Assembly (NCBI GenBank): GCA_021413585.1
Contig: JAIOQB010000356.1
Span: 1-53,516 of the forward strand
Origin: Planctomycetia bacterium
GTDB lineage: Bacteria; Planctomycetota; Planctomycetia; Pirellulales; UBA7805
DNA: 53,516 nt
Direction: 5' to 3'
Within the stretch, counting starts at the first letter, position 1, and each line of letters starts with the position of its first letter. The translations under genes and the position numbers were made by a program. The notes under the pieces were generated by a model. That model did no database searches. It saw nothing but the letters and a program-made list of their open reading frames with translations, and was not told where the DNA came from. Positions 19,989 to 41,600 of the stretch are shown here, one piece after another.

Positions 19989-20062
19989 GGGCGTTTAGCT
20001 CAGTTGGTTAGAGCGCCTTCCTCACACGGAGGAGGTCACAGGTTCGAGTCCTGTAACGCCCA
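19989..20062 (+). tRNA. tRNA-Val(CAC), integration target
   Basis: GGGCGTT/AACGCCC acceptor stem, TAGCTCAGTTGGTTAGAGC D-arm, CCTTC-CTCACAC-GGAGG anticodon arm, GGTTCGAGTCC T-loop; CCA not encoded. Confidence 0.95.
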
Positions 20063-21353
20063 TCGACATATGTACACTACGTGGTACTGTGTTGCTTTCA
20101 GCGGCTTTTTTGATGGTTGGCCCGGTCGCTTGTGACTCGGGGCAACCGTCTGCCGCGCTATGGTGTGCGCTGGGGTGTGCGCTTTTTCCGGCGCCCTGGT
20201 CGAAGTGGTCTTCGGTCACTTGCAGGTAGTGCTTCTTCGCCACGGCCATGCTGTTGCCGATCCACTTGCACACCACGTGAATCGGGAACGTCTCGGCCAG
20301 TTCCGTCTCGCGTGTGCTCCGCAGGTTTTGAAACAGTTTCGGCCAGACCGCCAGCCCGGCCTTGGTGATGATCTTCTGGAGCGTGGTCCGAAGATTCTGC
20401 CCAGCGTCACGGTAGCGTGTAATGACGTGCTGGGCGTCCCTCGGGGCAATCTGCCGGGCATCCTCCAGGTACGGCAGCAATTCAGGGAACAACGGCACCA
20501 CGCGGGATTCGCCCCCTTCGTGGTGTTCGGTCTTGGGGCTCCGCACGGTCATTCTGCCGGCAGCCCAGTTGATATCCTCCCATCGCAAGGCTAGATGCTC
20601 AGACGGGCACCGCAGGCCGCCGTAGCGGCTCAGGGCGAAGATCAGCCGCCATTCGGCGTCGGGGCACTTGTCGATGATCTTCGTAGCCGCTTCGGTGGTC
20701 ACAAAGTGATCGCGGCTCCGGTTGCTGCCGACGGCGCCGCTCAGGTCTTCAAACGGGTTGACGTGAATCAGCCCCTTCCGCATAGCTGCCTTAAAGAATT
20801 GCTTCGCGTTGCTGATCCGCTTGCGGACGGTGTTTGCCGCCAGCCCCGGAGGCTCCGCGGTCGGGTCTTTTTTCTTGGCCGCCTTGCTCCGCCGTGGATC
20901 CTTGGCCACGGTGGTCAAGTAGATGCGAAACCCATCGGCATCCCCGGGCGTGATATCCCGCAGCGGCTTGTCGGCGCCAAAGTGTTCCACGAGGTTTCGC
21001 CGGGTGTGCCCCCAGTTGGTCACCGTGGCTTGCTTCACGTCGGCCCGGGCCGCAATGTACCCCAGGACGAATGGCCCCAGCGTGCGGGCTCCCTTGCCCC
21101 CCGGCGCCGCAATCAACCCCGCCTTGGCCAGCCGCGCGGCCATCTTGGGTTTCAACCCCTTGAGCCATGCGGCCAATCCGGGATCGACGTCACGATTCAG
21201 TAGCCGGGCCTGTAGCAGCCCCTCGACACGGAGCTTGATATCCTGCGCCGATCGCTCAGTCACCTTGCCGAGCCATACGGTCTTGCGCTTCCCCTCTTCA
21301 TCGACGAATAAGATTCGCCGTCGTCCTTTTTGGTCGGTTCCGATACTTGCCAT
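20022..21353 (-). CDS. Tyrosine recombinase/phage integrase (443 aa; 3' end overlaps the tRNA antisense)
   Basis: SAM-like domain (KPLRDITPGDADGF), RYGGLRCPSE, SPKT, FQNLRST, WIGNS, KHYLQV. Confidence 0.92.
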   Translation of the reverse strand: MASIGTDQKGRRRILFVDEEGKRKTVWLGKVTERSAQDIKLRVEGLLQARLLNRDVDPGLAAWLKGLKPKMAARLAKAGLIAAPGGKGARTLGPFVLGYIAARADVKQATVTNWGHTRRNLVEHFGADKPLRDITPGDADGFRIYLTTVAKDPRRSKAAKKKDPTAEPPGLAANTVRKRISNAKQFFKAAMRKGLIHVNPFEDLSGAVGSNRSRDHFVTTEAATKIIDKCPDAEWRLIFALSRYGGLRCPSEHLALRWEDINWAAGRMTVRSPKTEHHEGGESRVVPLFPELLPYLEDARQIAPRDAQHVITRYRDAGQNLRTTLQKIITKAGLAVWPKLFQNLRSTRETELAETFPIHVVCKWIGNSMAVAKKHYLQVTEDHFDQGAGKSAHPSAHHSAADGCPESQATGPTIKKAAESNTVPRSVHMSMGVTGLEPVTSSV

Positions 21354-21536
21354 TTTGCTCACCTGCTTTCGTGTTAGAGTAAAAAATGCGGTTAGCCGGC
21401 GGGACGGACAATGCACGTCGCATTGTGATACCACTCCAGTTACCAGCCGCCGTCCCGTCGGCCCCGTCAACGCTTCCGCTGCCAGGGGCAATTTCCCAAC
21501 AGGCAGCATCATCGTCGACGCTCCGCATGGACGGCC

Positions 21537-21953
21537 TCACGCCCCGTCGTAAAACGCCATCACCATATCGGCCGCGATGCCTTGAATGTCGCGTTCTGGC
21601 CCCTCAGGGTCATAGTCCTTGTCGTGGCGGGGCGCGTCGTCAAGGTTGCACAACTTGCCCTTGATCTCGAACTCCCCCTCGAACTCCCGGGTATCACCAA
21701 TCTGGCGCACGTGAACTTTCAATTCAGTTGCCCCGGACCAAATCCGCTGGAGCTTGCGCGCGTTGCGCTCCAGGTGTTCCAGCGTATCGCCGACGCCTTC
21801 AAAGCCGGCGGCTTTCAGTGCAGCATCGCGGTTCTCGATAATCTTGGCGCAAATAGCGGCAGACTCCTTAGGCGTCCGCTTGCGCTGCCCCATCCCCTTG
21901 AACTCAGGCAGCTTTTCAAGCTGGCGAATGGCTTGGGCGAGTTCGTCCCTCAT
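21537..21953 (-). CDS. Hypothetical protein of the element
   Basis: 138-aa ORF, ATGA-coupled to the upstream ORF. Confidence 0.6.
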   Translation of the reverse strand: MRDELAQAIRQLEKLPEFKGMGQRKRTPKESAAICAKIIENRDAALKAAGFEGVGDTLEHLERNARKLQRIWSGATELKVHVRQIGDTREFEGEFEIKGKLCNLDDAPRHDKDYDPEGPERDIQGIAADMVMAFYDGA

Positions 21954-22174
21954 ACGGCACCGCCGATCCAGGCCGCCGCATCAGCATCGGTCAAATCGAG
22001 AATGCGCTCGTTACCGTGGCAGAGCGCGTCGCCCTCTTTGCGGACCAGCCGGTCGATGGCTTTGCCCTGTTGCTCCCGCTCAATTGCCTGCCAGCGCTTG
22101 AGCGATGCGCGGGCTAACAACTCAGGTCCGCTCGACATTCGCGCGCGGGGTCGCTTCGACACAATCCTTGACAT
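21950..22174 (-). CDS. Small hypothetical protein
   Basis: AAAGGA SD; coupled to the downstream ORF. Confidence 0.5.
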   Translation of the reverse strand: MSRIVSKRPRARMSSGPELLARASLKRWQAIEREQQGKAIDRLVRKEGDALCHGNERILDLTDADAAAWIGGAV

Positions 22175-22343
22175 GGGGAATCCTTTCGGCGCCGGCAGCC
22201 TGCCGGTCGCACCTTAGAATGAGTCCTGGCCCGCAACGGCCCTGCTAGGTGGTGCTTAGGCCACCATGGGGATCGTTGCCTACTCCCGAACCGCCACGGG
22301 CCAGGGCTCTTGATACTAAGCATGAGAATTTAGCAACCGCCGG

Positions 22344-22583
22344 TTATTGGCCGGGCGGTCTAAGCAAAGGGTTTAGCGTCACCAATTTTGCACACTCCCC
22401 AAGTGTCGTCAACCCTGTTTTTTCCACGTCCCCCAGGTCATGCGCGCTGCCGATCGTGCAACAGGCGCAATCGTATAGCTGCCGTTCTGGCAGTTTGTCC
22501 CCAATTGTGGACGTTTCGCCCTTCCGCCGCTCCGCGATGGCTTTCGCCCGCTTGAATGCGGCCGCCGTGCAATAGGGTTTCAT
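22344..22583 (-). CDS. Small hypothetical protein
   Basis: Start overlaps the stop of the tape-measure-like gene (ATGA). Confidence 0.35.
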   Translation of the reverse strand: MKPYCTAAAFKRAKAIAERRKGETSTIGDKLPERQLYDCACCTIGSAHDLGDVEKTGLTTLGECAKLVTLNPLLRPPGQ

Positions 22584-24127
22584 GCGATGCCGCCATCGGG
22601 CTGGAAGCGGGCCACGGTGTCCACTTTCTTAATCGAGGCGTCGATAGCTTCTAATTGCCTGCCCTGCCGAAGCGCTTCCTTCAGGTGTTCTTCCGCAGTT
22701 TCCTTTTGCCCAGACCTTAGTGCAGCCGCTTGAATCTGCTCGGCGAGTCCGGCAAGGCCCATGCGTTGGCTGTGGACTTCGGAATCGTGATTCATCAAGT
22801 CGAAGTGCAACACGCCCGCCTTGTGTCTGTCGGCTTCTTCTTTGGCGGCCCGCTCATCTTCGTGGATCGCCTTTAGCGATTCGTCGGCCTCTCGGAGAAA
22901 CATCTTGTCTTCCGCGATCTGTGCGCGCAGATTCCAATTTTTATTTAGAGCGTCATACTCTTCCTTCATTTGTTGCCCGGTCAAGTTCTCGATCTTTTCG
23001 ATGTGGGCCTCCCACGCGGCGAAAGCCTTTTCCCGCTCCGCTTCGACCACTTCGATATCGTTTCCTTCCAGCTTGGCGCGTTCCAGCGCCATATCGCGCA
23101 GCCGCTGATTGTGGTCGCGTTCGATATCCTCTTCCGCCTTGACCTGCTCTTCGTTGGCGGCAATGGCGGCTTGCGATTCGTTCGCCATGCTCAGGTAGCG
23201 GGCCTTCTCCGCTTTGATATCCCCCAGCTCTTTGTACGTGGCCTCCGTCTGCGCGCGGGCCTTGGCGGCATACTTGGCGCTGGCAGGGTTTTCGTCAGGC
23301 GTGTTCGCGCGGATATCCACGTCGGCCGCGTCGAGCGTCAACAGTTTGCCGAGTGCTGCCAGATCAAACTTGCCATCCTCATGGCCGGGCCCCGCCGCCT
23401 TCGCCCAGAACTTCACAATTTCGACCGTCGCGTCGGCGGTGCTTTCCTTGATGTTCTTCATCACCATCGGAATGCCGTGGGCCATCTCCTCTGCGGCGCC
23501 TTTGTAGCGATCCATCAGCTTTTCGAGGATTACGGTTTGGGCCGCGTGGGCATCGCCGCTGCGCTGCAGAACTTCGATTTCCTCTTTCTCTTCTTCCATC
23601 AGCGTGATGCCGACGCCGCGCAGCAGCTTGGCGGCGTGTTCGGGGTCGTTCAATGCCTTACCGAGCATCCGCGCGGCTTCCGGCAAGTCGGTTCCCATCA
23701 CTGTCGCCAGGTCGGCCGACAGTTTGAGCGTTTCGCGGAATGTGTCCCCCTTGATGTTCGTAAACGGCGCCATCACCGCCGCCGCGGCATACGCCTGCTC
23801 TTTGGTGAACATCGTCGCCTCGGCCAACTCGTCGGCCATGGCCCGCACTTGCCCGGCGGTATATCCGGCGGCATCGCCGCTGGCATGAATCGCCGCGTTC
23901 AGCCGATTGACGGACTTTTCCCGCTCTTCAAAGGTCTCATACAACTTCTTGATTCCCTCAACGCCCAAATAGCCGCCGAAAACGGCCTCCATCCTCTTGT
24001 GCATTTTTTCGGCCGCTTCCGCTGCGCTGCCGAACCGTTTGGAAATTGCGTCCAAGTCCCCTTCGACCTTTTGCCGGCCGCGGGTTTCGAGTTGGATGTA
24101 GCCTGTTTCGAGGGGTGTGTCGCCCAT
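22580..24127 (-). CDS. Phage tail tape-measure-like protein (lambda gpH N-terminal type), 515 aa
   Basis: LNAAIHASGDAAGYTAGQVRAMADEL...FTNIKG...DLATVMGTDL..AARMLGKALNDP....LRGVGI...AQTVILEKL...YKGAAE, followed by coiled coil. Confidence 0.8.
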   Translation of the reverse strand: MGDTPLETGYIQLETRGRQKVEGDLDAISKRFGSAAEAAEKMHKRMEAVFGGYLGVEGIKKLYETFEEREKSVNRLNAAIHASGDAAGYTAGQVRAMADELAEATMFTKEQAYAAAAVMAPFTNIKGDTFRETLKLSADLATVMGTDLPEAARMLGKALNDPEHAAKLLRGVGITLMEEEKEEIEVLQRSGDAHAAQTVILEKLMDRYKGAAEEMAHGIPMVMKNIKESTADATVEIVKFWAKAAGPGHEDGKFDLAALGKLLTLDAADVDIRANTPDENPASAKYAAKARAQTEATYKELGDIKAEKARYLSMANESQAAIAANEEQVKAEEDIERDHNQRLRDMALERAKLEGNDIEVVEAEREKAFAAWEAHIEKIENLTGQQMKEEYDALNKNWNLRAQIAEDKMFLREADESLKAIHEDERAAKEEADRHKAGVLHFDLMNHDSEVHSQRMGLAGLAEQIQAAALRSGQKETAEEHLKEALRQGRQLEAIDASIKKVDTVARFQPDGGIA

Positions 24128-24134
24128 GATGGCC

Positions 24135-24377
24135 TCAGTTGTGGGGGGAGTTGTTCAGCCGCTGAATGACCGCGCGAACGGTTTGAAGATTGCGCCGGAA
24201 TGTGGCCAGCTTCTCTTGAATGGCCAGCGCGTGGGCGGGGTCCGTGTCGATGGCATTGACCAATTCGACCATGGCCCGCTCTGTTGCTTCCATGCTGGCC
24301 AGGATAGCGGCCAGGTCTGCGCCCGGGCGTAGCATCGTCACGGCCTCGGGGACCATGCTGGGCTTGAACTTGGTCAT
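24135..24377 (-). CDS. Small helical hypothetical protein
   Basis: AAAGGA SD; 80 aa; directly upstream of the tape-measure-like gene. Confidence 0.55.
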   Translation of the reverse strand: MTKFKPSMVPEAVTMLRPGADLAAILASMEATERAMVELVNAIDTDPAHALAIQEKLATFRRNLQTVRAVIQRLNNSPHN

Positions 24378-24480
24378 AATGAATCCTTTGAAAAAACGGC
24401 CGGCCGCGAGGAAAGTTCAAAACCCCGCGACCGGCCGCCAGACACGACGCGGGAGGAGAAACACCCGCGCCAAATGCTTA

Positions 24481-25131
24481 TCACCATTCCGCCATTTGCT
24501 GATGCAGTTCATTGTGCCGGCGCGACTTGGCGGCCTGTTCCGCTTGAATTTGCGAATGCCGTTCCCGCGTGGCATCCAAATAAGTCTGGCAGCCCTCGCG
24601 GTCCGCGGGATCGCAACCTTGCAAATTGTTTAGCGCGCGGTCCACCGCGTCTTGCGCGTCGCGGATGGCCGGGTAAAGGGCCATAATTTCAGAGTCCAGC
24701 GCGCGGAAGTCGCGCTGCAGTGCCGTGTTCGGGCAGCTTCGCGCCAAGTCGGCGTCGATGGTCGCGATTTTGGCAATCGTCAGATTTAATTCCGCCAGTT
24801 CCAATTGAATGGCCCCCGCGGTGCGGCGGTGTTCGGCAACCGCAGCGTCGAGCTTGTCGTTGGCGGTGTCCAACTCGCGTTGCTGCGCGTCGCGTCGAGC
24901 TTCGAGCGTTTGCTTTTGGGCCGCTTGCTCGCGGAGCTTGGCGCGATACTTGAGATTGGCAACCAGGTCGTCCAGTTGCGGCGGCAGTTTGCCGGCATCC
25001 CGCAAAATGTCGGCAATCGCGGTGCTGCCGACTTGCTCGCCCATCGCGATGCGGCGAGCCAGCGTCATAAACGAGTCGCCCCGCTCGGTCAAAATCTCCC
25101 CGGCCTCTTGTACGTCAGTCTTCGCTACCAT
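24481..25131 (-). CDS. Coiled-coil hypothetical protein
   Basis: 216-aa ORF rich in A/Q/L/E/R heptads; GAGGAG upstream. Confidence 0.65.
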   Translation of the reverse strand: MVAKTDVQEAGEILTERGDSFMTLARRIAMGEQVGSTAIADILRDAGKLPPQLDDLVANLKYRAKLREQAAQKQTLEARRDAQQRELDTANDKLDAAVAEHRRTAGAIQLELAELNLTIAKIATIDADLARSCPNTALQRDFRALDSEIMALYPAIRDAQDAVDRALNNLQGCDPADREGCQTYLDATRERHSQIQAEQAAKSRRHNELHQQMAEW

Positions 25132-25450
25132 AGCTTTCGCGCTCCTCTTTTAGTTGTGCAAACATTGCCCGCGATTCGGCCATCGCTGCAGCGCGATGGA
25201 TTCGCAGCACGTCTTCGGTCAAATCTTCTTCGTCGCGTTCGACGGACGCCAGAATCTCCGTCATGTTTTCATTCGTGAAAGTTTCGGCGCCATCATCAGC
25301 CGCAATCTCTTCGACGAGCGCGGCATACAGTTCCTGATGGTCTTCCAATTCCGTCTCTGCTCCGCAGCCACCGCGGATAATGTCGCAATCTTTTTTCATT
25401 TCGCTGCGCCATCCGTCAACCGCCGCCGCAAAAATCTCTGGGCTTTTCAT
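25115..25450 (-). CDS. Acidic hypothetical protein
   Basis: ATGA-coupled to the upstream gene; D/E-rich. Confidence 0.55.
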   Translation of the reverse strand: MKSPEIFAAAVDGWRSEMKKDCDIIRGGCGAETELEDHQELYAALVEEIAADDGAETFTNENMTEILASVERDEEDLTEDVLRIHRAAAMAESRAMFAQLKEERESYGSED

Positions 25451-26127
25451 ACCGTTGCTCCGTTGGTGTATCGCGCCACGTCGGCCGCCCACAGGTCGGC
25501 AAACGCTTGGGGCACGGGGGTTGCTTCAATTTCCGCGAACGTGCTGCCCATCAGTCGCTGCGGTTCGTCGTCTAATGCTGCGGCATATTTCAACAAATGG
25601 GAAAGTCCATACCGCTCGCCCGCCGCGCAGCCGCCGGCCAGGAACTTGAAGTCGTGTTCCCAGGCGCGATGGCAGACGTGAATAAAAATCCTGATGAACC
25701 TGTCGCCGTGGTCACTGTGCCAGGGCTCGGGCCCGTCCGCAAACCTGTCGGCAGGCAATTCGGCCCACAGGATCGAATAGCGCTGTCCGTTTCTCACGGC
25801 CGCCGCCGAACTCTCGGGTTCGGCAATGGGCCGCGCAGGCAGGCAATGGGTCAACTCGTGCGCGAACGTCGCCAGCGGGTCGATGCACTCGCGCAACAGC
25901 CTGTCGAGTTGCAACACGATCGCCGGCGCCGGGCCGCGCCAAGCTCCGCGCGATTCCAAGTGCGCCTTGGTAAACGGTTCGACGTGCTGCGGAGTTGCCC
26001 AGGCCGTGCTATGCGATGGCGCCGGCATCCCATCCGGCGGCGCGCCGAGAATGTAGAGCGTCGGCAGTTCCGGCGCAACCGCGGCGGCCAGTCTGTGACA
26101 CTCAGCGATGATGGTTTCGCGTTCCAT
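25447..26127 (-). CDS. Putative zincin metallopeptidase (HExxH; SprT/ImmA-like)
   Basis: TFAHELTHCL plus downstream WHSDHGDRF. Confidence 0.55.
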   Translation of the reverse strand: MERETIIAECHRLAAAVAPELPTLYILGAPPDGMPAPSHSTAWATPQHVEPFTKAHLESRGAWRGPAPAIVLQLDRLLRECIDPLATFAHELTHCLPARPIAEPESSAAAVRNGQRYSILWAELPADRFADGPEPWHSDHGDRFIRIFIHVCHRAWEHDFKFLAGGCAAGERYGLSHLLKYAAALDDEPQRLMGSTFAEIEATPVPQAFADLWAADVARYTNGATV

Positions 26128-26137
26128 GATGGTAATG

Positions 26138-26362
26138 CTACACATTGGGTTCTGAGCTATTGCCAGTCGCTGGCAATTCGATAATCCGCAAGTGCCGGCA
26201 GGAACATTCCCGGCAGATGCACTTCTGGGTTGTGGATCCATCGCTACCGTTGTTTTCGCTGCGGATGATGATGGGTTTGCGGTCGGTGTCGCAATGCGGG
26301 CAGCGCACCGGCGGCTGCCGCTGAATGAACAACATCGGGGCGGCTTCCCAATTTTCACGCAT
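26138..26362 (-). CDS. Small C4 zinc-ribbon protein (Ogr/Delta-like architecture)
   Basis: CPHC...CRECS. Confidence 0.5.
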   Translation of the reverse strand: MRENWEAAPMLFIQRQPPVRCPHCDTDRKPIIIRSENNGSDGSTTQKCICRECSCRHLRIIELPATGNSSEPNV

Positions 26363-26711
26363 CAGGCACCCCCTTGAGCCGGGCCCGCCCGGCATCAGTT
26401 ACCCGAATACGCCGATTGAATCGCTCGACCAGCCCGTCGACCTCCAGCCCCTTGATGGCCTGCTGGCAGCGGATGCGCTCGCTCGGCGTTGGCCAGTAAC
26501 CCAGGAACTTCGGGATGTCATAGATCGCACCAAACAGCCGCGTGTCCTGAATCTCTTGACGTAGGTAGCCAGTGAGCGGGTTGCGGGCAGCAACCTCTCG
26601 GGCCAACTCGGCGCGAAGCTCCAGACGGGCGGCAACCGTGGCTTTCCTGATGCCGGCCAGCAGCTTGGTGGCGTCGATGTGGATGGTTTTGGGACGGCCC
26701 ATGATGGTCAC
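26355..26711 (-). CDS. Hypothetical protein, possible winged-helix C-terminus
   Basis: MGRPK start; AIKGLEVDGLVER...IRVTDAGR. Confidence 0.55.
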   Translation of the reverse strand: MTIMGRPKTIHIDATKLLAGIRKATVAARLELRAELAREVAARNPLTGYLRQEIQDTRLFGAIYDIPKFLGYWPTPSERIRCQQAIKGLEVDGLVERFNRRIRVTDAGRARLKGVPDA

Positions 26712-26907: not shown

Positions 26908-28389
26908 TCAGAACTCCCCGTTCCTGTCGCCGTAGTCGTCTGACTCTGTATCTTGAACGTCTTGAGCGCCTAATACCCCATACAACTTGGTAGGTATGTT
27001 TATTCCCGAAGATTCTTCAACACTCTCAAGACGCTCAAGACGCTCAAGTTCTTTTAGTCGCTCAACCGTGAACGCCTTCCCCGGCGCCTGCAAAAACCAT
27101 GGGCCGGGGCAAATTGGGCGAATGGCTTTCACCCCCAATTGCTTCCGCGCCCTTCGGAGCGTGGATAGCGATATGGCCATCGCCTTGGCCTCTGCCTCAA
27201 CGTCCTTTGTCGGGGTCGGGCCATCAGCGAGCCGCTGCTGAAGGAACTCCACCGCCTCGCGCTGGGCATCAGCCCCGGGGCCAGGGCGTGCGGCTGCTTG
27301 CTCCGCCGCCAGGGAGTCGTCTGCCGACATATCCACCGCCTCACGCTCCCAATGGACGCTGGCCGGTTCGCCGGCAATGGTGAACGCCAGCCCGGTCCCC
27401 TCGGCCGCCAGATTGTTTTTGCCGGGCAGCATCAATCGGCGTTGCTTCTCTTTTGGATCGCGGCTGACGTGCCAGACGGCGCGGGCGATGCCGGTGAAAG
27501 CGCGGCTGCCGAGTGCCAGGTCGTCCGCGGTGGCACCTTGGGCCTTGCGTCGATGTGCGACCACGACAACAGCCGGGCCATACTTTTCCGCCAGCTTGGC
27601 GATGGGGGCCAGCACGGCCCGGACTTCGTTGTCCCGGTGGGCATCCGTCTTGCCGCCGAGAAAGCTGCCGATGGGATCCACCACCACTAGCCGGCAATCG
27701 GGCAGAGTCTTTAGCGTTGCCTCAATCGCGTCCACGTCGGCAAGGCTAATCAGCCGCTCATATTCGCCCTCGACGCCAAGCCCGCGCACTGCGGACAGTA
27801 GGTGTACCTTGCTGCAATCGGCGCGGTGGGCATCAAGTCGCGGCCGGATCGTGTCGCCGGGATCGTCTTCCGCCGTCAACAGCAGCACAGAGCCCTTTTC
27901 ACATTTTGCGCCGTCTGGGAATGGCGTTCCCGTGCTGGTGTTGGCCGCCATGTAGACGGTAGCGAACGACTTCCCCTCGCCGGGACGCCCAACGAACAAC
28001 GTGATTCGACCGGCAGGGATTCGGCCCTCCCAATACCACTTGATTTCCTTCGGTTCAACGTCTGCCATGCAAATCACTACTGGCGTTTGCAGTGGAGCGG
28101 AATCAGCCCGCGCGTCTTCCGCATCGGCCTTGGCGATTAGTTCGCCTTCAATGAACTCGTGAGCGTCTTCGCCGAGCCCAAACCGCTCGATAACCCGGTC
28201 GCGGAACTTCGCTCGCATCCACGCCGCGGAAGTATCGAGCTTGTCCCGGTACTCCGTGCCGTTGCGTTGCGCGATGGCCAGCCGCTTTCCATCGCGATCA
28301 ACTGGGCCGACGTGGATGGCCAGCGGTCCTAATCCGCCGTCGTGATAATTCCAGCGTGCTTGGTCTTCAGGGGTGGCAATTTGCGTCAT
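26908..28389 (-). CDS. AAA_25/RepA-like SF4 helicase (replication protein)
   Basis: WYWEGRIPAG, GRPGEGKS (Walker A), LTAED, LVVVDP (Walker B), VAHRRK, GSRAF, KNNL; C-terminal winged-helix-like segment. Confidence 0.85.
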   Translation of the reverse strand: MTQIATPEDQARWNYHDGGLGPLAIHVGPVDRDGKRLAIAQRNGTEYRDKLDTSAAWMRAKFRDRVIERFGLGEDAHEFIEGELIAKADAEDARADSAPLQTPVVICMADVEPKEIKWYWEGRIPAGRITLFVGRPGEGKSFATVYMAANTSTGTPFPDGAKCEKGSVLLLTAEDDPGDTIRPRLDAHRADCSKVHLLSAVRGLGVEGEYERLISLADVDAIEATLKTLPDCRLVVVDPIGSFLGGKTDAHRDNEVRAVLAPIAKLAEKYGPAVVVVAHRRKAQGATADDLALGSRAFTGIARAVWHVSRDPKEKQRRLMLPGKNNLAAEGTGLAFTIAGEPASVHWEREAVDMSADDSLAAEQAAARPGPGADAQREAVEFLQQRLADGPTPTKDVEAEAKAMAISLSTLRRARKQLGVKAIRPICPGPWFLQAPGKAFTVERLKELERLERLESVEESSGINIPTKLYGVLGAQDVQDTESDDYGDRNGEF

Positions 28390-28688
28390 CGGTTCCCCCG
28401 TGCGCGGATGATGGCCGCCGGTGGCGCCGCGCTGGTTGCTGGCCGATGGGTCGTCACTGGCCGATAGATGGGCGTCTCGGCGCCAATCGTCGCCGCCCGC
28501 ACCATATCGTGAGTCTCCTGCAGTCGGCGTATCTCGACCGGCAGGTCCATTAGCACGTCCAGGGCCTCTAGCTCCTGTCGGAGTGTGCCAAGTCGTGGCA
28601 CTTCGGCCAGCACGTCGGCGTGGTATCCCCTCGATTGCGCGGCCGCGCGAACGGCTCGTTCTCTGCGGCGGGATCGGATATAATCCAT
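28386..28688 (-). CDS. Hypothetical protein
   Basis: GGGAG SD; coupled to the helicase start. Confidence 0.5.
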   Translation of the reverse strand: MDYIRSRRRERAVRAAAQSRGYHADVLAEVPRLGTLRQELEALDVLMDLPVEIRRLQETHDMVRAATIGAETPIYRPVTTHRPATSAAPPAAIIRARGNR

Positions 28689-28741
28689 TTCAGTTCTCCC
28701 GCCCGGGTTCGGCCTGCCAGCCACCGGGCATTTTTATTGGG

Positions 28742-28927
28742 TTAGCGGGCCGTGGCGGTTTCACGCTCGGCGAGATACTGCTGGATGGCCTCTGGCCTGA
28801 ACAACAGGCGGCGCCCCAGGCGGACGCAAGGGAATCGGCCGGCCTTGGCCTCACGGCGAAGCCACGATGCACTAACGCGAACCTCTTCGGCGGCTTCGGT
28901 GACGTTCAACGCTAATCTGGTCGTCAT
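28742..28927 (-). CDS. Excisionase/AlpA-like HTH protein (HTH_17)
   Basis: LALNVTEAAEEVRVSASWLRREAKAGRFPCVRLGRRLLFRPEAIQQYL; GGAG SD. Confidence 0.85.
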   Translation of the reverse strand: MTTRLALNVTEAAEEVRVSASWLRREAKAGRFPCVRLGRRLLFRPEAIQQYLAERETATAR

Positions 28928-29015
28928 TTGATTTCTCCGGCTATGTGGTGCCGCCCCGTGCGGCTGACTTGAGAAACGATAGCCACATTCGCGCGGCGAG
29001 AAAAATGCGCGCAGA

Positions 29016-29089
29016 AAAACGCCCGAGCGCTTTTTAGAAAAACACTCGGGCGTTTTGAAAAGTTGGAAAGAAAAGCGCTCGAGCGTTTT
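29016..29089. promoter_or_regulatory. Three imperfect palindromes (putative operators) upstream of the xis-like gene
   Basis: aaaacgcccgagcgctttt, aaaacactcgggcgtttt, aaaagcgctcgagcgtttt. Confidence 0.5.
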
Positions 29090-29090
29090 A

Positions 29091-29780
29091 TCAGCGGCCG
29101 CGGAGCCGTTTATTCAGAGTAGGCACTGAAACACTGTGCTGTTTGGCGAGCTTTTCAATAGCCTTGGCTCGCGTGCGATTGCCCGTCGTCAACGCAACTA
29201 ATTCGGCGTTCAGGGTATCGGCTGACACATCCTTCAATTTCCTTGTGCCACTGCCGCCTTTCGATGCGTTTCGCTTATTTCCGAACTTCGCGCCGTGCTT
29301 CGCGGCGTTTCGCAAAAGCGATCGCTGGTAGGCCATCCCAGCGCGAAAGGCATAATCTATCGTGGATCGTATGTCCGGCGGTCCCGAGAATGTAGCCCAA
29401 TGCTCTGCTGAATTGCCGTCATCGTTTTCCCAACCAATTAGAATCTGGCCGTGGTATTCAATGCCCAGGCAGTTTTCCCAAATCGTTTGGGCATCGCCTT
29501 GAATTGAATCCGCAACACTGGATCCACGAGGTGGAAACTCTATGACTTTTTTTCTTGCCTCGCGAAGCAACTGCAGTGTTTGCGGCGGATAGCTTTCAGG
29601 CGGGCGGCCCCGCAAGTTGGCCGTGTTTTCGTCTACTTCATAGACGGCTGGTTTTTCTCTGCTCTTTTTGAGAATCGCCAGCGCTGGCGATATCGCATTA
29701 ACCTGCCCGGCTACCGAACCGGCTGAAAACACCTGCCCGATAACGCTACCAGCCTTAGCTTTCGCTTTCTTCTTCGCCAT
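29091..29780 (-). CDS. Hypothetical regulator with C-terminal HTH-like segment
   Basis: MAKKK start with CAGGTGAGC RBS; C-terminal RAKAIEKLAKQHSVSVPTLNKRL. Confidence 0.55.
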   Translation of the reverse strand: MAKKKAKAKAGSVIGQVFSAGSVAGQVNAISPALAILKKSREKPAVYEVDENTANLRGRPPESYPPQTLQLLREARKKVIEFPPRGSSVADSIQGDAQTIWENCLGIEYHGQILIGWENDDGNSAEHWATFSGPPDIRSTIDYAFRAGMAYQRSLLRNAAKHGAKFGNKRNASKGGSGTRKLKDVSADTLNAELVALTTGNRTRAKAIEKLAKQHSVSVPTLNKRLRGR

Positions 29781-29799
29781 GATGCTCACCTGTGGTTGA

Positions 29800-29873
29800 G
29801 CCGAGCCGGCCGGCCATCGTCCCGCAGGTGAGCGCCCGGGAACGATGGCCAGCCGTGTGCAGGGAGCTACCCC
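29800..29873 (-). ncRNA. Putative structured regulatory RNA with anti-RBS loop
   Basis: Stem 29807-29823/29838-29855; loop GCUCACCUGC; 5' GGGUAGCUCCC. Confidence 0.45.
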
Positions 29874-30096
29874 GCGACCCGATGCGTGCATTCTAACGGG
29901 CTTTGACCTTCGTGGGAGTCGCCTGGACGGCCGCCAGCAGCCGGGCCCGGGCCGCGGGCGTCAACGAGGATAGGGCCTCGACCAGCCCCGCGATATCGTC
30001 ATCCGGTGCCCCGTGTGCGCCATAGTGTGCGCTAACTGGCAAAATCCCGGTTTCATCCGGTGAATGTGGACCCTGTTCGAGTCCTGTAACGCCCAT

Positions 30097-30280
30097 TGGC
30101 TCCAAGTTTTCAGCGAGAAATCCGCATAATTCTAGGAGTTGTAGGGTTCCATTCTCCTTCAGTTCGTCCCGCTCCGGGGTAGTCTGCACCACATTTGGTG
30201 CAGTTTCGCCCGCCACGAGCCCAGACGCTTTGGCGAAGTGTGGGCTCCGCACGGTCATTCTGCCGGCCGCCCAGTTGACC
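30097..30280 (-). pseudogene. Internally deleted integrase remnant of a second element
   Basis: About 30242-30279 matches about 20536-20572 almost exactly (NWAAGRMTVRSP) and is fused directly to an HFAKA.. tail. Confidence 0.7.
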
Positions 30281-30327
30281 GCCACCGCATCCTGATTACC
30301 TCGAATCCCCTCCGGCAGGCTGGCGAT

Positions 30328-30450
30328 CAATGGCACTTACTTTGTGGAAAAATCACGTAGTCTCACGAAATGCTAGCTGCGGATTCTTGGGGAATTTGCA
30401 GCTAGCAATTTCACATTGGGCTTCATTCAAACGTAAAGTAAGTGCCATTG
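30328..30450. mobile_element. 123-bp MITE (IS4-like ends)
   Basis: 16-bp perfect TIR CAATGGCACTTACTTT/AAAGTAAGTGCCATTG; 10-bp target duplication GGCTGGCGAT at 30318-30327 and 30451-30460. Confidence 0.85.
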
Positions 30451-34455: not shown

Positions 34456-35340
34456 TCAGCCGCGCGAGCGGCGCTGCTTCCAGCCGACCAACCCCAGCCC
34501 GGCCAGGCCCAGCGCGGCCAGAACGAACGTGCTCGGCTCGGGAACGGCGCCGCCACCTTCCAGCGGCACGACGTCGGCCCACGTGTCGCCGAAGCGAAGC
34601 TCATCAAAGTTGACTCCGGGATCCTGGAACGATGTCATCGAAACCAATTCGAAAGCGAGATTTGAGAATGCGCCGGCGGTCGTAGTGGTGTCGGGGCCGC
34701 CTTCAGTCGCCAGACTCGTGGGATCTGCGTACAAGATCAATGTGTCAACGTCGCCGGCGCCATAGACAATCTTGCCGACAAAGAAATGAACATTTGTGCC
34801 TTGTGCGACCAGAGGCAAGCCGACCAGCGCTCCATTGACGAACAAGGAGGGGGCGACAGCAACACCGTTAATGCCGATTTGGATGGTCCTGGCTCCGTCG
34901 TCTTGCGTCGGGCTGTTGTAGAGTTCATAACCGTTGTAGGGGCCCGGGCTAGTGGAATGAGGCTGATACAGGAAGCTGAAATAGACCGATGTGCCGTCGG
35001 TCCCAAAATTCGTGCTGAGATTCCGCAGCGTCCGCTGGGAGATACCGACGTCAGGGGCCACTTCCGCATGATTGCCGGTCACTGCCAGGTTCAAATACGT
35101 TAATCCCGGCGATACAACCTGGCCAAGAGACCCTGGAAAATCTAAGGTCTGATCACTCCAGGCATTGGACCAGCCGCTGCCGCCATTCTGCCCTGCTAGG
35201 CCACCAACGGGATAGCTGAATCCTTCGTAGACGAGTAACGCCGCTTGGGCCTGTAGTGCAGACAGGGCGACAACTGCGGCAGCGACGGCAAACAGCGAAC
35301 GCGTGACGGTCGATCGTACAAAATTCTTGAGCGATAACAT
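34456..35340 (-). CDS. PEP-CTERM sorting-domain protein
   Basis: Signal peptide; YEGFSY...FDELRFG; VPEPSTFVLAALGLAGLGLVGWKQRR. Confidence 0.9.
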   Translation of the reverse strand: MLSLKNFVRSTVTRSLFAVAAAVVALSALQAQAALLVYEGFSYPVGGLAGQNGGSGWSNAWSDQTLDFPGSLGQVVSPGLTYLNLAVTGNHAEVAPDVGISQRTLRNLSTNFGTDGTSVYFSFLYQPHSTSPGPYNGYELYNSPTQDDGARTIQIGINGVAVAPSLFVNGALVGLPLVAQGTNVHFFVGKIVYGAGDVDTLILYADPTSLATEGGPDTTTTAGAFSNLAFELVSMTSFQDPGVNFDELRFGDTWADVVPLEGGGAVPEPSTFVLAALGLAGLGLVGWKQRRSRG

Positions 35341-35554
35341 TGGCATACCCATGGGTGTTAGAAGTTTGTTTCTGCTGCCGACCGGGAACATCCCCGGGGG
35401 ACGGAAAACGGTGAAAGTTCGAATTGCGAGTTTCGGATTGAGGAGCCGGCGTGTGTGATAAGCGTTCTCCTGGGGGACAGGAAATTATGGATTGTGGATT
35501 TCGGGAGATGGGTGTCGGGCTGTTTCGGTTGCGTCCTTCTTTAATCAGCAATCA

Positions 35555-37345
35555 TCAATTTGAAATCACCTCGATGCGGATATTGTCCAGCCACTGGATG
35601 CCTCCGCCGCCGGAGCCTACCACGGGAAAGCCAAACACGATGTAGCGCGGCGGCGTGGTCCAATCGACCTTCGGCACGGGGGGCTTGAACGTCAGGTCGC
35701 GCACCCAGCCTTCCTTGCCACGCCATTGCGACCGCTGTGCACGAATGTCGCGGAGTTTGCCGTCGGCCACGTCCAATAGCAGCCGCACGCGATACCATTG
35801 AAGTGGGGTCCACTCCACCCGCGGCAGGGCCGGGTCGGCGTCCTTCCACAGCGCGATCTCCGCGCCCGGCCCCACCGCCGACGCAATCGCCAGCGAAGAC
35901 ATCAGCCCCTTGCTCTCGGGCATGATGTCGAACTCGATGAGCACCTCGCAGCGATGGGCAAGCTCCCGGCCGTCGATCTCGTGTCCAATGAGCGGTGGCG
36001 CGTTGGGGGGCAGGCCGGTGAAGGCCAGCGAGACCGCACGGTTACCAACTGGCAGTTTCCCACCAGACGTATCGAGCACCGGTCCCCCCAAAGCGGCCAG
36101 CCTTTCAACTGGGTCGAACACGCCAACCCCTTGATGCTTACGTATCGCTCCCCGTACGACCCAGTGGGCTTTGGATGCATCGATTGGTCCCCGGTCGAGG
36201 GCCTCAAAATCTTCGGCTAGCAGCACGGTGCGTGGCTGACCGTTGAGCTTGTCCAGCGCGAACCGGAACGGATCGGCGGCCGGCAGCGGCTTGACTTCGT
36301 TGGCGGTGACCACGGCGGCTTGGCCGGCGGAGAGGATTTGCGATTTGCGTTTGGGGATTTGCGATTGCGGATCGGTTGGAGCTTGGGACAGTTGGTCGGC
36401 GTCGGTCAGGGCGACCTGGCCGCGGAAGACGTGGACTTCTGTTGAAGCGGCTGTCGGCTGCCGGCTGTCAGCTATCAGCTTGGCTGAAGGCTGATAGCTG
36501 ACGGCTGACGGCACTTTCACAATCACGCCGAATTCTGTGCCCAGGTCCGTCACCGTGCCATCGGGCGTGTGGACCTTGAACCCGCGTGCTGGCTTGGGGA
36601 CGTGGGCGGTGAGACGGCCGTCCGAAAGCCGGCAGGCGCCGGCGTCAACGATGGTGAACTCGGCTGGTCCTTCGAGGATTACCTGAGCCTGGTAGTTGAA
36701 CGTGATCTCGGCTGAGCCGCTTTCGAGCTTGAGCTGCTGGCCCGGGGCTAAAGCGTCGCCCGTGGGAGCGATACCATCGTGCCATTTCGCGTCCGTCGCG
36801 CGGGCCAGTGTGGCGGCCGGGCCGTTCGGGGCAGTCGCCACCAGGCCGGGACCGTGATTCGTCGCTGGCCAAAACACGATTACCAGCATGCCCACGACAA
36901 CGAGTCCGGCCAGCGAACAGAGCGTGTAGGGATGGGCGACGATGGCGAGCGTGGAATGCAGCAGGTTGGTAAGCGGGCGGTTCCCCGGCAACGGTGTGCC
37001 TCTCGGTGCTGTAACGACTGGCCGTGGCGGGTGGCTGATGTTCGAGGGACTTGGTGTGGCCGAGTCTTTCTGTGGCCACCCTTGAATGGCGGCCAGCAGC
37101 ACCGGATCGATGTCGGCGCTGGGCAGCGGCGAATCAGCCGCGGCTTCGCCGGTGAAACCACGGCGGCGCAGACTGATCGAATCGTAGACGAACTCGACAT
37201 ACCAGCGGCGGGCGGTGGGATTGTTGCACACCAGTTCGTGCAGTCGCGCGGCATCGGCACTCGACGCGTCGCCTTGCCGGCAGGCGTCCGCCAACGCGTA
37301 CAATTCTTGCTTAAGAACATTGTGAATAGCTTCTGCATCGCTCAT
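35555..37345 (-). CDS. FecR-like anti-sigma factor
   Basis: TM helix; LKLESGSAEITF..VILEGPAEF..GFKVHTPDGTVTDLGTEFGV..TEVHVFRG. Confidence 0.88.
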   Translation of the reverse strand: MSDAEAIHNVLKQELYALADACRQGDASSADAARLHELVCNNPTARRWYVEFVYDSISLRRRGFTGEAAADSPLPSADIDPVLLAAIQGWPQKDSATPSPSNISHPPRPVVTAPRGTPLPGNRPLTNLLHSTLAIVAHPYTLCSLAGLVVVGMLVIVFWPATNHGPGLVATAPNGPAATLARATDAKWHDGIAPTGDALAPGQQLKLESGSAEITFNYQAQVILEGPAEFTIVDAGACRLSDGRLTAHVPKPARGFKVHTPDGTVTDLGTEFGVIVKVPSAVSYQPSAKLIADSRQPTAASTEVHVFRGQVALTDADQLSQAPTDPQSQIPKRKSQILSAGQAAVVTANEVKPLPAADPFRFALDKLNGQPRTVLLAEDFEALDRGPIDASKAHWVVRGAIRKHQGVGVFDPVERLAALGGPVLDTSGGKLPVGNRAVSLAFTGLPPNAPPLIGHEIDGRELAHRCEVLIEFDIMPESKGLMSSLAIASAVGPGAEIALWKDADPALPRVEWTPLQWYRVRLLLDVADGKLRDIRAQRSQWRGKEGWVRDLTFKPPVPKVDWTTPPRYIVFGFPVVGSGGGGIQWLDNIRIEVISN

Positions 37346-37893
37346 TCTTTTGCATCCTTGCGGAGCGAATCGTCAACGCACCGTGATACGGCGAGCCGGC
37401 TGCGGATGATGGAGTGCTTCACCGCATCCGAAGTGCGGCCCGTCGCTGCCGCGACTTGCTGCATGGTTTCACGGCCGGCGTAGTAGCGCAGAAGAAGCCT
37501 GCGATGAGCGGCGGCAAGCTTTTGGAGACAAATCTCCAGGGCCGAGTAGCGACTACTCAGGTGGTCGTCGGAGAGTTCAAATTCCTGGGCCACGGACTCC
37601 AGAAAGTTTGGATCGCTCAGTTCGGCCCGCTGCGACGATTGCTTGCGGAAAGTTAGCACCTGATAGTAGGCGATCGTTCGCGCCCAGGCACCGAAATCCT
37701 TCGTGTCGTCGTAACGGTCAAACTCCTGCCAGAGCAGAATCCTGGTCTGCTGAACGATCTCATCCGCATCAGCCCACTGTGGCACCAAGGAGGCAATAAA
37801 CGCCTGCAACCCCTGCTCATGCTTGCCGAGCAACTGCAGAAAGTCGGTGGTGCGCCGGTCTTTACCGGCCGATGAGTGGGATGATGCGGTCAC
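37342..37893 (-). CDS. ECF sigma-70 factor (planctomycete type)
   Basis: LQAFIASLVP..ADEIVQQTRILLWQEFDRYD..FGAWARTIAYYQV; region 4 LEICLQKL...RYY. Confidence 0.9.
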   Translation of the reverse strand: MTASSHSSAGKDRRTTDFLQLLGKHEQGLQAFIASLVPQWADADEIVQQTRILLWQEFDRYDDTKDFGAWARTIAYYQVLTFRKQSSQRAELSDPNFLESVAQEFELSDDHLSSRYSALEICLQKLAAAHRRLLLRYYAGRETMQQVAAATGRTSDAVKHSIIRSRLAVSRCVDDSLRKDAKE

Positions 37894-38118
37894 GAGCGTT
37901 TCTCTTTGATGCTTCAGTACAACGCTGCGCGGCGGAAACGGAACAGCTAAGTTCTACCAACTTGGGCGCGAAACGAAAAAAAGCGCCATACGCCGAGGGG
38001 GGGAAATCGGTCGTAAGTGTGAACTGTGGCTGTTAACATACTGACACAATAGAAGTTAGAGATTTCGAACATTTTTTCAGAATCTCAGCGCCGCGGTCTG
38101 GTACGCGTCTTTGCCAAT

Positions 38119-38271
38119 AACCGTTCGTTTGCTGACGCATGGCAACAACGTAGGTGCCGACGACTTGTTGGGATTCATGGTGCCCCAGGAGGGGGCCTCT
38201 CCCGAAACGGCCGTTCAGAGCGGCGAAACGATCGTTTGTTGGGGGATGTCAGAAAACGGTGGAGCTGACGA
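38119..38271. other. Conserved non-coding element, copy 1
   Basis: Box-wise identity to 41949-42103. Confidence 0.6.
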
Positions 38272-38300
38272 CACGGCCTGGCGCCAAACAGTGGCGGCAT

Positions 38301-38340
38301 AAAGCAAAAAGCCCCGCCAGACCAGAGCCGGGCGGGGCTT
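38301..38340 (-). terminator. Rho-independent terminator of the PEP-CTERM gene
   Basis: aagccccgcc...ggcggggctt followed by a T-run on the minus strand. Confidence 0.7.
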
Positions 38341-38377
38341 GTGCGATTAAAAAGTGCACGGTTGATGAGCATCAGGC

Positions 38378-39310
38378 TCAGCGATACTTCTTCCGCAGGG
38401 CGACGAATCCCAGGCCCATGAGACCCAGACCGGCCAGGATGAAGGTCGAGGGTTCGGGGACGGCACTCGCCTCGGAAACCGCGCTCACCTGAAAGTCGAA
38501 TTGGTAGGTGGTCGGTCCCCCCGTGCCGGTCGTTGCCCTGAACATATAGGTTCCTGGCCCAATCGGCTGAGGGATGCTCGCGAGATTGAGGAAATCCTGT
38601 CCCACGGAGGCCGACGACAAAGTTGTGTTTCCCAAGGAAGGCGTTTGGATGGCGGCGGAACCCAAGGCCGTGTAATTCTCGACCTGAATCGAGTCGAGCT
38701 GGAAGCCCGGGGCAATCGTGAGGGTAAAGTCGTCGCCGTCGAAATCCGGGTTGCCGCCGAGCACGCGATTGTGGCCTGCCGCGAGCGAGCCTAAATTCAC
38801 CGAACTGGCATTCACGCCCGCATCGCCGCTGACACCTTCGTTGTAGACAACGGTTGACGGATCAAACGCCGCACTCACATGGAAACCAAACTGATAGGTG
38901 GTTGGCCCGCCGGTGCCTGTCGTCGCCCGCAACACATAGCCGCCGGACCCAAGTGGCGCAGTGATACTCGACAGAGTGAGCAGATCCTGTCCGACGGAGG
39001 CCGACGTCAAGACAGTGTTGCCCAACACAGGTGATTGGATGCCGGCGGCACCCAAGGCCGTGTAACTGTCAACGAGGATCGAATCGAGCTGCAAGCCAAC
39101 GCCGATTGAAAAGTGATAATCGTCGGTGTCGAAATTCGGGTTGCCACCAATCACTTGATGCGTGCCCGCCGGGAGCGAGCCCAGTTCGGCATAACCGGGA
39201 TCAACTCCCGCATCGCCGCTGACGCTTTCACTGTAGAGCAAGACAGCGCGAGCGGTCGAAACAGGGGAGACCAAGAGAACGAGCGCGAGCACCGGCAGGA
39301 ATCGGATCAT
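38378..39310 (-). CDS. PEP-CTERM protein with two internally repeated domains
   Basis: YxExVSGDAGV...GGNPxFDxDD...RATTGTGGPTTYQF occurs twice; VPEPSTFILAGLG...RKK. Confidence 0.9.
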   Translation of the reverse strand: MIRFLPVLALVLLVSPVSTARAVLLYSESVSGDAGVDPGYAELGSLPAGTHQVIGGNPNFDTDDYHFSIGVGLQLDSILVDSYTALGAAGIQSPVLGNTVLTSASVGQDLLTLSSITAPLGSGGYVLRATTGTGGPTTYQFGFHVSAAFDPSTVVYNEGVSGDAGVNASSVNLGSLAAGHNRVLGGNPDFDGDDFTLTIAPGFQLDSIQVENYTALGSAAIQTPSLGNTTLSSASVGQDFLNLASIPQPIGPGTYMFRATTGTGGPTTYQFDFQVSAVSEASAVPEPSTFILAGLGLMGLGFVALRKKYR

Positions 39311-39471
39311 TACGCAAGCCTTTCTAGAATTGAGGGGGAACGGAAACAAGCGACAAATGCAACAGCAGATGATTCCCCCGCTGCCACACGGCAACGAGGA
39401 AGGGGAGGACATTTTTGTGGTGGGTCTTTAAGGTGGGCTATTCAGATCACATCGAAACTCCATGTTCGCAA

Positions 39472-41076: not shown

Positions 41077-41600
41077 TTCTGCGCCTCCCGCTCGCGGGCG
41101 AGGCTCTGCTGGGCGCACCGCCGCACCTGGTCGCGATAGCGGCCCAGGGCTTTGTACACCGCTGGCTCCGCCGATTGCACTTCGCGGGCGATCTCTGCCA
41201 CGCTGCTGCCACGCTCGTAGCGGAGCGAGAACATCTGCCGTGCCCGGTCCGTCAGGCGGCGCAGGCACTGCTCGATATATTCCAGCAGCCGCGAGGTGGG
41301 CTGCGGTTCGCGGCGGTCGAACTCGCCGCGGATGGCTTCGATGGTTTCCAGTGAGAACGGAATCGGGCGGCGGTGGGCCTGGCGGCGGAAATGATCGATC
41401 TCATGGACCGCCACACCCCGTGCCCAAGCGCCAAAGCGGCGCGACGGATCGTATTGGTCGAATTTCTTCCACAGAATGGTGGCGATTTCCTGGCAGACGT
41501 CGTCCACGTCATTCGGGTCGGCTAGCAGCGCCCGAACGAACGCGCGGATCTCCCCTTGATGGGCCATGAACAACCGGAGAAAGTCGGCTTGATCGGGCAT
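41073..41600 (-). CDS. ECF sigma-70 factor
   Basis: FLRLFMAHQGEIRAFV..DDVCQEIATILWKKFDQYD..FGAWARGVA..CLRRL..LRY. Confidence 0.9.
   Translation of the reverse strand: MPDQADFLRLFMAHQGEIRAFVRALLADPNDVDDVCQEIATILWKKFDQYDPSRRFGAWARGVAVHEIDHFRRQAHRRPIPFSLETIEAIRGEFDRREPQPTSRLLEYIEQCLRRLTDRARQMFSLRYERGSSVAEIAREVQSAEPAVYKALGRYRDQVRRCAQQSLAREREAQK

Follow-up and report, generated by a model that had tools for sequence, protein, structure and literature searches.

A candidate structured leader RNA whose loop complements start regions in a tRNA-integrated element of Planctomycetota

Genes and features of the element

The window, by which we mean the whole stretch of 53,516 nucleotides that was analysed, is a contig of a 5.85-Mb metagenome-assembled genome of a Planctomycetia bacterium. 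It contains a 10-kb element integrated at the tRNA-Val(cac) gene at 19989-20062, and all genes of the element lie on the minus strand. The features that define a tRNA-integrated element are found here, in that a tyrosine integrase adjoins the tRNA gene and a repeat of the tRNA 3′ end stands at the far end. The main features are as follows.

20042 to 20063, plus strand: attL core, a repeat within the 3′ end of tRNA-Val(cac) (19989-20062)
20022 to 21353, minus strand: tyrosine integrase gene (int), integrated form, 443 aa, with Phage_integrase and SAM-like domains and a match to phrog_1
26908 to 28389, minus strand: AAA_25 primase/helicase-like replication gene by domain match, used as the query for relatives
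28742 to 28927, minus strand: HTH_17 gene by domain match, AlpA/excisionase-like
29013 to 29090, minus strand: three tandem terminator-like inverted repeats with A/T runs and a 21-nt unit, found by repeat search, after the gene for the 229-aa protein
29091 to 29780, minus strand: first gene of the element, a 229-aa orphan that matches no Pfam or PHROG family
29893 to 30096, minus strand: attachment core, 60 further codons and a stop, which continue the int frame in the excised circle to give a 497-aa Int
30075 to 30096, plus strand: attR core, identical to attL over 22 bp and in the same orientation

The first gene of the element appears to have no real homologues. The 229-aa protein has none among 19 other genomes of the family and a single match (E 0.009) among 400 other genomes searched in the phylum, a word-indexed search of 5.8 billion proteins returned only the protein itself, and a HMMER scan gave two weak repeat-like matches. 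The original prediction called it an HTH gene, which could not be confirmed, as the protein matches no HTH family and the gene with a recognisable HTH_17 domain comes after it (28742-28927). The terminator-like repeats that follow the 229-aa gene make it look monocistronic. In element order, a 112-aa ORF then lies between the HTH_17 gene and the AAA_25 gene.

Between the helicase gene and int, at 21537-26711, are about 5.5 kb of unknown genes, including one for a TMP_2 (tape-measure-like) protein. At 24400-24450, upstream of an 80-aa ORF, a 17-bp G+C-rich hairpin is followed by a T run in the manner of a canonical terminator, and its loop complements 8 nt early in the coding sequence of this ORF. 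A pair of small ORFs, starting at 22174 and 24377, shares the 9-mer of AAAGGATTC-N3-ATG at 22175-22189 and 24378-24392.

The int reading frame crosses the attachment core. In the integrated form it ends inside the tRNA gene, after 443 aa. The peptide MGVTGLE is encoded over the core in both translations, and a TAG stop at 29895-29893 is in frame with int. The extended int stop predicted at 29893 for the excised circle is thus present, and the hairpin described below lies 37 nt beyond it. An in-frame int tail with the conserved pattern GGAESGA...W..L....R was found in all eight elements examined (the window, L005, L006, L017, L031, L032, L051 and L055), whose integration sites cover four tRNA species (Val, Glu, Phe). 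The DNA contigs show no junctions that would indicate a circle or an empty site. In Mx8, attP lies inside int and integration gives int a new 3′ end (PMC6070905). The int tail resembles this arrangement, although the phylum and the integrase lineage differ.

Just outside attR, at 30097-30336, is the remnant of a related integrase, in which 30242-30278 is 97% identical to int at 20536-20572 (peptide NWAAGRMTVRSP). This remnant suggests that an older element used the same tRNA site, and it explains a 147-aa ORF that runs across attR. Further along the contig, at 34456-41268 on the minus strand, there are two successive cassettes of a PEP-CTERM and a FecR-like protein, with an ECF sigma factor after the first.

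Structure and conservation of the leader motif

The region upstream of the 229-aa gene contains the following minus-strand features. They are listed together with the start region of int, which is on the same strand but some distance away.

29779 to 29883: whole leader RNA motif, consisting of helices P1, P2 and P3 and the start region of the next gene, as delimited by models R1 and R2
29890 to 29895: putative promoter, a -10-like box TAGAAT whose TAG is the int stop of the circular form
29801 to 29882: helix P1, which closes a three-way junction and in which 29882-29878 pairs with 29805-29801 (UCGGG with CUCGG, including two G-U pairs)
29859 to 29875: helix P2, a 6-bp hairpin in the model alignment, with the loop UAGCU (29869-29865) and the palindrome AGCU inside it
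29807 to 29855: helix P3, the hairpin of the original prediction, placed by folding, with compensatory changes in relatives at 13 of 13 basal pairs
29824 to 29836: P3 loop, complementary to both start regions, with GCUCACCUG at 29833-29825
29784 to 29792: target 1, the Shine-Dalgarno region of the 229-aa gene, a 9-nt complement of the loop located 3 nt from the ATG
21357 to 21366: target 2, the Shine-Dalgarno region of int, a 10-nt complement of the loop located 3 nt from the ATG

The long G+C-rich stem can be read directly on the minus strand at 29855-29807, where 17-21 bp with one bulge present a loop that includes GCUCACCUG. The 131 nt of the minus strand at 29770-29900 fold at -68.2 kcal/mol (z -4.06, with none of 200 shuffles equally stable), and the plus strand of the same stretch reaches a z of -1.94 (7 of 200 shuffles). 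The P3 hairpin by itself folds at -42.5 kcal/mol. In its minimum free energy fold the loop is closed to 6 nt, CGCUCA, and opening it to a 12-nt loop would take 5 kcal/mol.

Relatives of the element were collected by means of the helicase. Species genomes gave 67 such loci, viral contigs 3 and metagenomes 79. They belong to Planctomycetota, and the closest helicase among them has about 65% identity. None in the species genomes, viral contigs or metagenomes is close enough for base-by-base covariation of the exact hairpin in the window. In most relatives with a detected int of the family, this gene is found about 0.2-1 kb after the helicase, adjoining a tRNA gene.

The leaders of the relatives have the same order of parts: the 5′ strand of P1 (CGGG/CCCG), P2, a short purine-rich joint, P3 and the 3′ strand of P1, which is separated from the target and start codon by 0-9 nt. 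The whole motif is about 105 nt long. RNAalifold gave the same three helices on six well-aligned relatives. On a non-structural MAFFT alignment of 14 leaders it returned only 10 weak pairs, and a model-based alignment was used instead.

Two covariance models were built. R1 was made from six distant relatives with the window excluded. Its matches, 13 in a set of 1.22 Mb and 11 in one of 0.68 Mb, are confined to the helicase strand and include loci outside the training set, and it finds the copy in the window (29779-29883) over the full model length with 23.2 bits (E 0.051 over 1.22 Mb). R2, built from 22 matches, brought in further loci and scores the window copy at 56.2 bits.

Covariation was assessed on an alignment of 27 rows, 26 of them distinct; L026, in which P3 is deleted, was not among its sources. 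As this alignment is fitted to the model and the sequences are related, its covariation figures are biased towards the structure: standard pairs fill 93.5% of 603 cells compared to 31-48% when the 3′ partners are slid, compensatory changes occur in 22 of 24 pairs, and the covariation score is 0.674 versus 0.08-0.13, a value reached by none of 500 shuffles. P1 is paired in 98.3% of cases over 26 sequences, and the P3 stems of relatives have almost no sequence in common. Among the non-Watson-Crick cells there are 50 G-U compared to 11 A-C, which favours an RNA of the sense (gene) strand. Covariation and strand asymmetry together support a structured RNA of the sense strand. The one RNA run from the same sample gave no match to the stretch. 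The hairpin RNA that had been predicted is therefore retained as a structured, sense-strand RNA, but as helix P3 of a three-helix motif rather than as a lone stem.

In a gathering-threshold Rfam scan of the window only the tRNA was matched. At E ≤ 10, the region 28900-30400 and the motifs of two relatives matched no Rfam family, and no row for C4 appeared. No description of the motif was found in the literature searched or in Rfam 15; the supplementary diagrams of 224 motifs in PMC5737381, which may include a similar motif, lie outside this comparison. To judge from these alignments and searches, the hairpin belongs to a conserved, uncatalogued family of leader RNAs with an apparently self-targeting loop.

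Loop complements at the adjacent start region

Ahead of the ATG at 29780 on the minus strand, the loop complement reads CAGGTGAGC-ATC-ATG, with the 9-nt match at 29792-29784 (CAGGUGAGC as RNA). It lies 8 nt from P1 and 3 nt from the AUG. Ahead of the int ATG at 21353 it reads GCAGGTGAGC-AAA-ATG, with a 10-nt match at 21366-21357 (GCAGGUGAGC as RNA), again 3 nt from the start codon. Both of the matches to ribosome-binding sites (RBSs) that had been predicted, including their equal spacing, are thus present.

Along the sense RNA of the element, the best duplex partner of the loop is the int site (-20.7 kcal/mol). The site of the 229-aa gene ranks third (-19.4 kcal/mol), and a non-specific G+C-rich site is nearly equal to the proposed targets (-20.3 kcal/mol). 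The exact 9-mer has 4 copies in the window compared to 0.53 expected, a number reached in 1 of 100 shuffles, and the 5.85-Mb genome has 100. When one mismatch is tolerated, the window shows no excess (8 versus 13.5 expected). In addition, 9-mers with three copies are common in the 10-kb element, at 114 versus a shuffle mean of 58, and the gene pair with starts at 22174 and 24377 has a shared 9-mer-N3-ATG of its own. The count of the 9-mer is therefore weak by itself, and the case rests on the placement of the matches and their recurrence in relatives.

In relatives, the same relation between loop and start region is found with other sequences. In L017, a hairpin of about 19 bp has the loop UACUGUCCUU, and AAGGACAG stands 3 nt ahead of where the next gene starts. 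L028 has a stem of 18 bp, with the loop AUUUCACCUUCCA, upstream of GGAAGGUGA-N4-AUG. An independent hairpin scan, in which the enclosed sequence had to contain a complement of at least 8 nt to the -20 to -3 region of the following ORF, gave 14 unique strong cases on the helicase strand. The five controls gave fewer: 5 for the opposite strand, 1 and 2 when the loops were reversed, and 4 and 5 when they were taken in the same sense. A scan that demands 7 uninterrupted Watson-Crick pairs at the loop misses the window and L017.

For the relatives as a set, loop-target pairing was measured as the longest Watson-Crick complement that the distal part of P3 finds within the 30 nt following P1. In 23 unique instances, from which identical duplicates and the weak matches at L092:16877, L023:15232 (minus strand) and L106:269 were left out, the complement to the own target averages 8.4 nt (range 5-11; at least 8 nt in 17 of 23). 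Between elements it averages 5.2 nt (sd 1.5; permutation p ≤ 1e-4). The targets end between -1 and 8 nt ahead of the start codon, and their sequences are diverse, with GCGAGUACA, AAGGGUGC, GAGGAUGC, AAAGGAUGC, CGAAAGGC, ACAAGGAA and GGAAGGUGAAA among the relatives and CAGGUGAGC in the window. This diversity means that the loop tracks the mRNA itself and not the tail of 16S rRNA. Covariation of loop and RBS in homologous elements, which the original prediction had named as a check, is accordingly observed for the adjacent gene across the 23 instances.

The integrase start as a second match

The original prediction also took the RBS of int to be a target of the loop. Downstream int genes of the family found in the window accompany 13 of the 23 instances. 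The within-element test covered 12 of these, as L003, whose sole int-like match lies upstream of its helicase, falls outside it; the int start of L084 was not captured, which leaves 11 int genes counted. The matches of the loops to the int starts of their own elements are given below.

At least 9 nt: window (10), L092 (10, GGACGGUGAA), L021 (10, GGACAGGUGA), L113 (9)
6 nt contiguous and 10-11 nt with one mismatch: L028, L031, L051
Poor, 4-7 nt: L017, L106, L032, L119; also L084 (6)

Loop matches of at least 9 nt are found at 4 of the 11 own int genes. Among 80 other genes of these elements, a single one reaches this length (Fisher p 5.8e-4; Mann-Whitney p 8e-4). In the other 7 of the 11 elements the match is absent or poor (4-7 nt). 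Matches of at least 10 nt between the loop of one element and the int of another were seen in 3 of 110 pairs, which reflects the similarity of related loops. When eight elements were compared over just the 310 nt that follow the int tail, the window alone stood out, at 10 versus a background maximum of 8.

These comparisons support the RBS of int as a preferred second match of the loop in some elements, the window included. The second target that had been predicted thus recurs but is not universal, as it is missing in 7 of 11 relatives, and for the window itself we put a trans action on int at somewhat under even chances.

An unbiased scan gave further loop complements at start codons in L092, L016, L017 and L025. 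Complements of 9-11 nt to P3 loops lie at or near other ORF starts at L092:8901, L092:13691, L017:16545-16554 (minus strand) and L025:4835-4843 (minus strand). One of these ORFs, located beyond the tRNA in L017, is HTH-like and 132 aa long.

Distribution of the motif

In 29 loci, a distance of 1.4-5.7 kb separates the motif from the helicase downstream of it. The frequency of the motif among relatives is as follows, where the locus counts include some contigs present in two collections.

Loci with at least 3 kb upstream of the helicase: 29 of 97
Loci with a helicase at least 50% identical: 24 of 50
Loci with a helicase less than 50% identical: 5 of 47

In the window, the motif is followed on the gene strand by a variable first gene, then the HTH_17 gene and then the replication gene. 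The motif stays with the first gene, and in relatives its distance to the int tail can be 0.2-3.4 kb. By BLASTP, most first genes are unrelated to one another, with the exception of a marine cluster, and 20 of 21 belong to no Pfam family. In some relatives, hairpins also follow the int tails.

In a scan of the phylum with R2, the motif was found in at least 1 of 150 other sampled genomes, a lower bound since the filters were stricter and only 24 candidates were scored per genome. The genome from which the window comes has four copies. The other three (C448:3911-4015, C39:5298-5413 and C262:3465-3571, loci L157-L159) precede variable first genes in elements with Prim-Pol and DUF3987 replication genes and HTH_17 or HTH_36. 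Beside one of these copies is an unrelated int, which the loop of that copy matches poorly.

Proposed mechanism and alternative explanations

We think it somewhat probable that the motif is a leader RNA of about 105 nt whose P3 loop pairs with start regions and represses translation, most likely between molecules. A promoter with its -10 box (TAGAAT) 7 nt upstream would drive transcription of the leader on the gene strand. A TAnnAT box is found 5-20 nt upstream of P1 in nearly all of the 23 instances, which suggests that the motif is probably the very 5′ end of the transcript, and a scan for consensus sigma-70 promoters at 28600-30400 found no full promoter. P1, the small P2 hairpin and the long P3 would form a three-way junction. 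The P3 loop, of 10-14 nt, could then pair with the start region of the first gene, in the window that of the 229-aa orphan and also that of int. Such pairing would hide the Shine-Dalgarno sequence and repress translation, a well-motivated candidate function. The leader might act on other transcripts either as a free RNA or while still attached to its mRNA; neither a U-tract nor any other sign of the release of a short RNA is present.

The geometry of the motif bears on whether the pairing occurs within one molecule. The target begins 0-9 nt after P1 and the loop is at the far end of a helix of about 20 bp, so P1 would have to open for a long-range pseudoknot to form, or the pairing would have to take place between molecules. 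The cis repression of the adjacent gene that was originally predicted is thus consistent with the complementarity of the loop to the adjacent RBS, but is sterically doubtful with so short a linker. The int matches and the palindromes in the P2 loops also argue for pairing between molecules. Palindromes of at least 4 nt occur in 15 of 22 P2 loops compared to 5.9 in shuffled loops (P 0.0005), and those of at least 6 nt in 6 compared to 0.7. They vary in sequence (UUGCAA, GAUC, AGCU in the window, GUAC and UAAUUA), and in the marine subgroup P2 is without them. Self-complementary loops of this sort have the look of kissing-loop dimerisation sites, such as the dimerisation sites of retroviruses. 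One hypothesis is that the P2 palindromes point to RNA dimerisation, in which the P2 loops may help two leaders to pair and each P3 loop would come near the start region of its partner.

A purely cis translational switch, in which a pseudoknot between the P3 loop and the Shine-Dalgarno sequence (P1 open) alternates with a translatable form (P1 closed), seems to us unlikely. It would account for the fact that loop and target are always on one transcript, 0-9 nt after P1, and in the window the linker, of 8 nt from P1 or 15 nt from the base of P3, could be long enough to bridge the helix. On this reading the int match would be a coincidence or a by-product of similar RBSs, in keeping with its absence from 7 of 11 elements. 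In the marine subgroup, however, the linker is 0 nt, too short for the target to reach a loop some 20 bp distant without melting of P1 and the basal part of P3, and P1 is conserved and 98.3% paired. Moreover, a cis switch gives no role to the enrichment at int (4/11 versus 1/80) or to the palindromic P2 loops.

An explanation at the level of DNA, with the 9-10-mers as operators for a protein of the element or the hairpins as a single-strand initiation or origin signal for the primase-helicase, is considerably less plausible still. Three copies of one 9-mer do occur at two promoter-proximal places, the elements encode replication and HTH proteins, and the palindromes of the P2 loops (GATC, AGCT, TTGCAA) could be protein sites. 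Yet the complement always lies on the RBS, -1 to 8 nt from the start codon, whatever its sequence, the asymmetry of 50 G-U to 11 A-C points to an RNA of one strand, and the stems covary with free sequence, unlike operators. Least plausible, and in our judgement very improbable, is that the hairpin is a terminator or 3′ stabiliser of the int transcript of the circle, or that it insulates the element from read-through out of the flanking host DNA, with chance matches to the RBSs. Its position 37 nt after the int stop of the circular form and the hairpins after int tails in some relatives would fit such a role, but no T run follows 29807 and the terminator scan lists none, so the pattern of an intrinsic terminator is lacking, whereas the element's own repeats at 29013-29090 do have A/T runs. 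The motif also keeps its place at the first gene, 0.2-3.4 kb from the int tail in relatives, and chance is excluded by the comparison of own with cross-element targets and by that of int with other genes.

Repression between leader molecules allows a more speculative extension, which we regard as possible, though with greater doubt than the repression itself. As a self-targeting leader RNA of a new class, the motif may allow replicating integrative elements to sense their dosage and may act as their immunity factor. In this scheme, leaders would dimerise by P2 and their P3 loops would occlude the RBS of the first gene on the partner molecule (in some elements the int RBS as well), so that with more transcripts or copies both would be silenced, a response coupled to the Int tail that only the circle encodes.

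Comparison with known regulatory RNAs

The loops of C4 cover the icd ribosome-binding site, and C4 is processed by RNase P. The c4 RNA is reportedly a processed molecule of 77 bases, to go by the title of one study. The trans-acting c4 RNA of P1 and P7 represses the synthesis of Ant (PMC8546580). Like C4 of P1/P7, the motif is a sense-strand RNA of a temperate element that is encoded ahead of its target within one operon, and it would repress downstream proteins by base-pairing. Its loop likewise complements the RBS of a downstream ORF, over 9 nt in the window and a mean of 8.4 nt in 23 instances. Unlike C4, it does not match the Rfam model at E ≤ 10, it has one targeting loop instead of two, it belongs to another phylum, and in some elements it has a second target at int. 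As the motif starts beside the -10 box, processing of its 5′ end may not be needed, which would be a further difference from C4. The C4/CI-like repression of the original prediction thus holds as a functional analogy, that of an RNA upstream of its own target in a temperate element, but not as membership in the C4 family, since Rfam returns no match.

The element is also like P4 in that it is a small tRNA-integrated element with int and a primase-helicase. In P4, the CI RNA is processed from a leader that is not translated, and its pairing with seqA and seqC in that transcript silences the replication genes (PMC4825925). This pairing leads to premature termination of transcription, whereas the partner of the motif is the RBS itself. 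No similarity of sequence or model was found between the CI RNA and the motif. IsrK of the Gifsy-1 prophage is a leader-derived RNA that acts in trans on the longer mRNA made from its promoter, where it governs how the first ORF is translated (PMC4825925). IsrK activates translation by opening an inactive structure, while the loop of the motif covers the Shine-Dalgarno sequence. Repression, and not activation as with IsrK, would therefore be expected of the motif. In the rep leader of IncI-alpha and IncB plasmids, a hairpin loop pairs with a distal sequence near the rep RBS and activates translation, which a counter-transcript blocks. In contrast to this activating pairing, pairing in the motif would cover the RBS, and a counter-transcript is not evident.

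Significance

To our knowledge, almost no regulatory RNAs have been described in Planctomycetota. If the proposed reading is true, the motif would be a new family of structured regulatory RNAs, absent from Rfam 15, and the logic of P1 C4 and P4 CI, in which an RNA of the same operon silences the genes of the element, would have arisen in unrelated mobile elements. The covariation of loop and RBS makes the mechanism directly testable by compensatory mutations, and the loop would allow the regulated genes of each element to be predicted from sequence. In addition, the link to int, together with the int tail that depends on integration, suggests how excision and integration may be tied to the expression level of the element.
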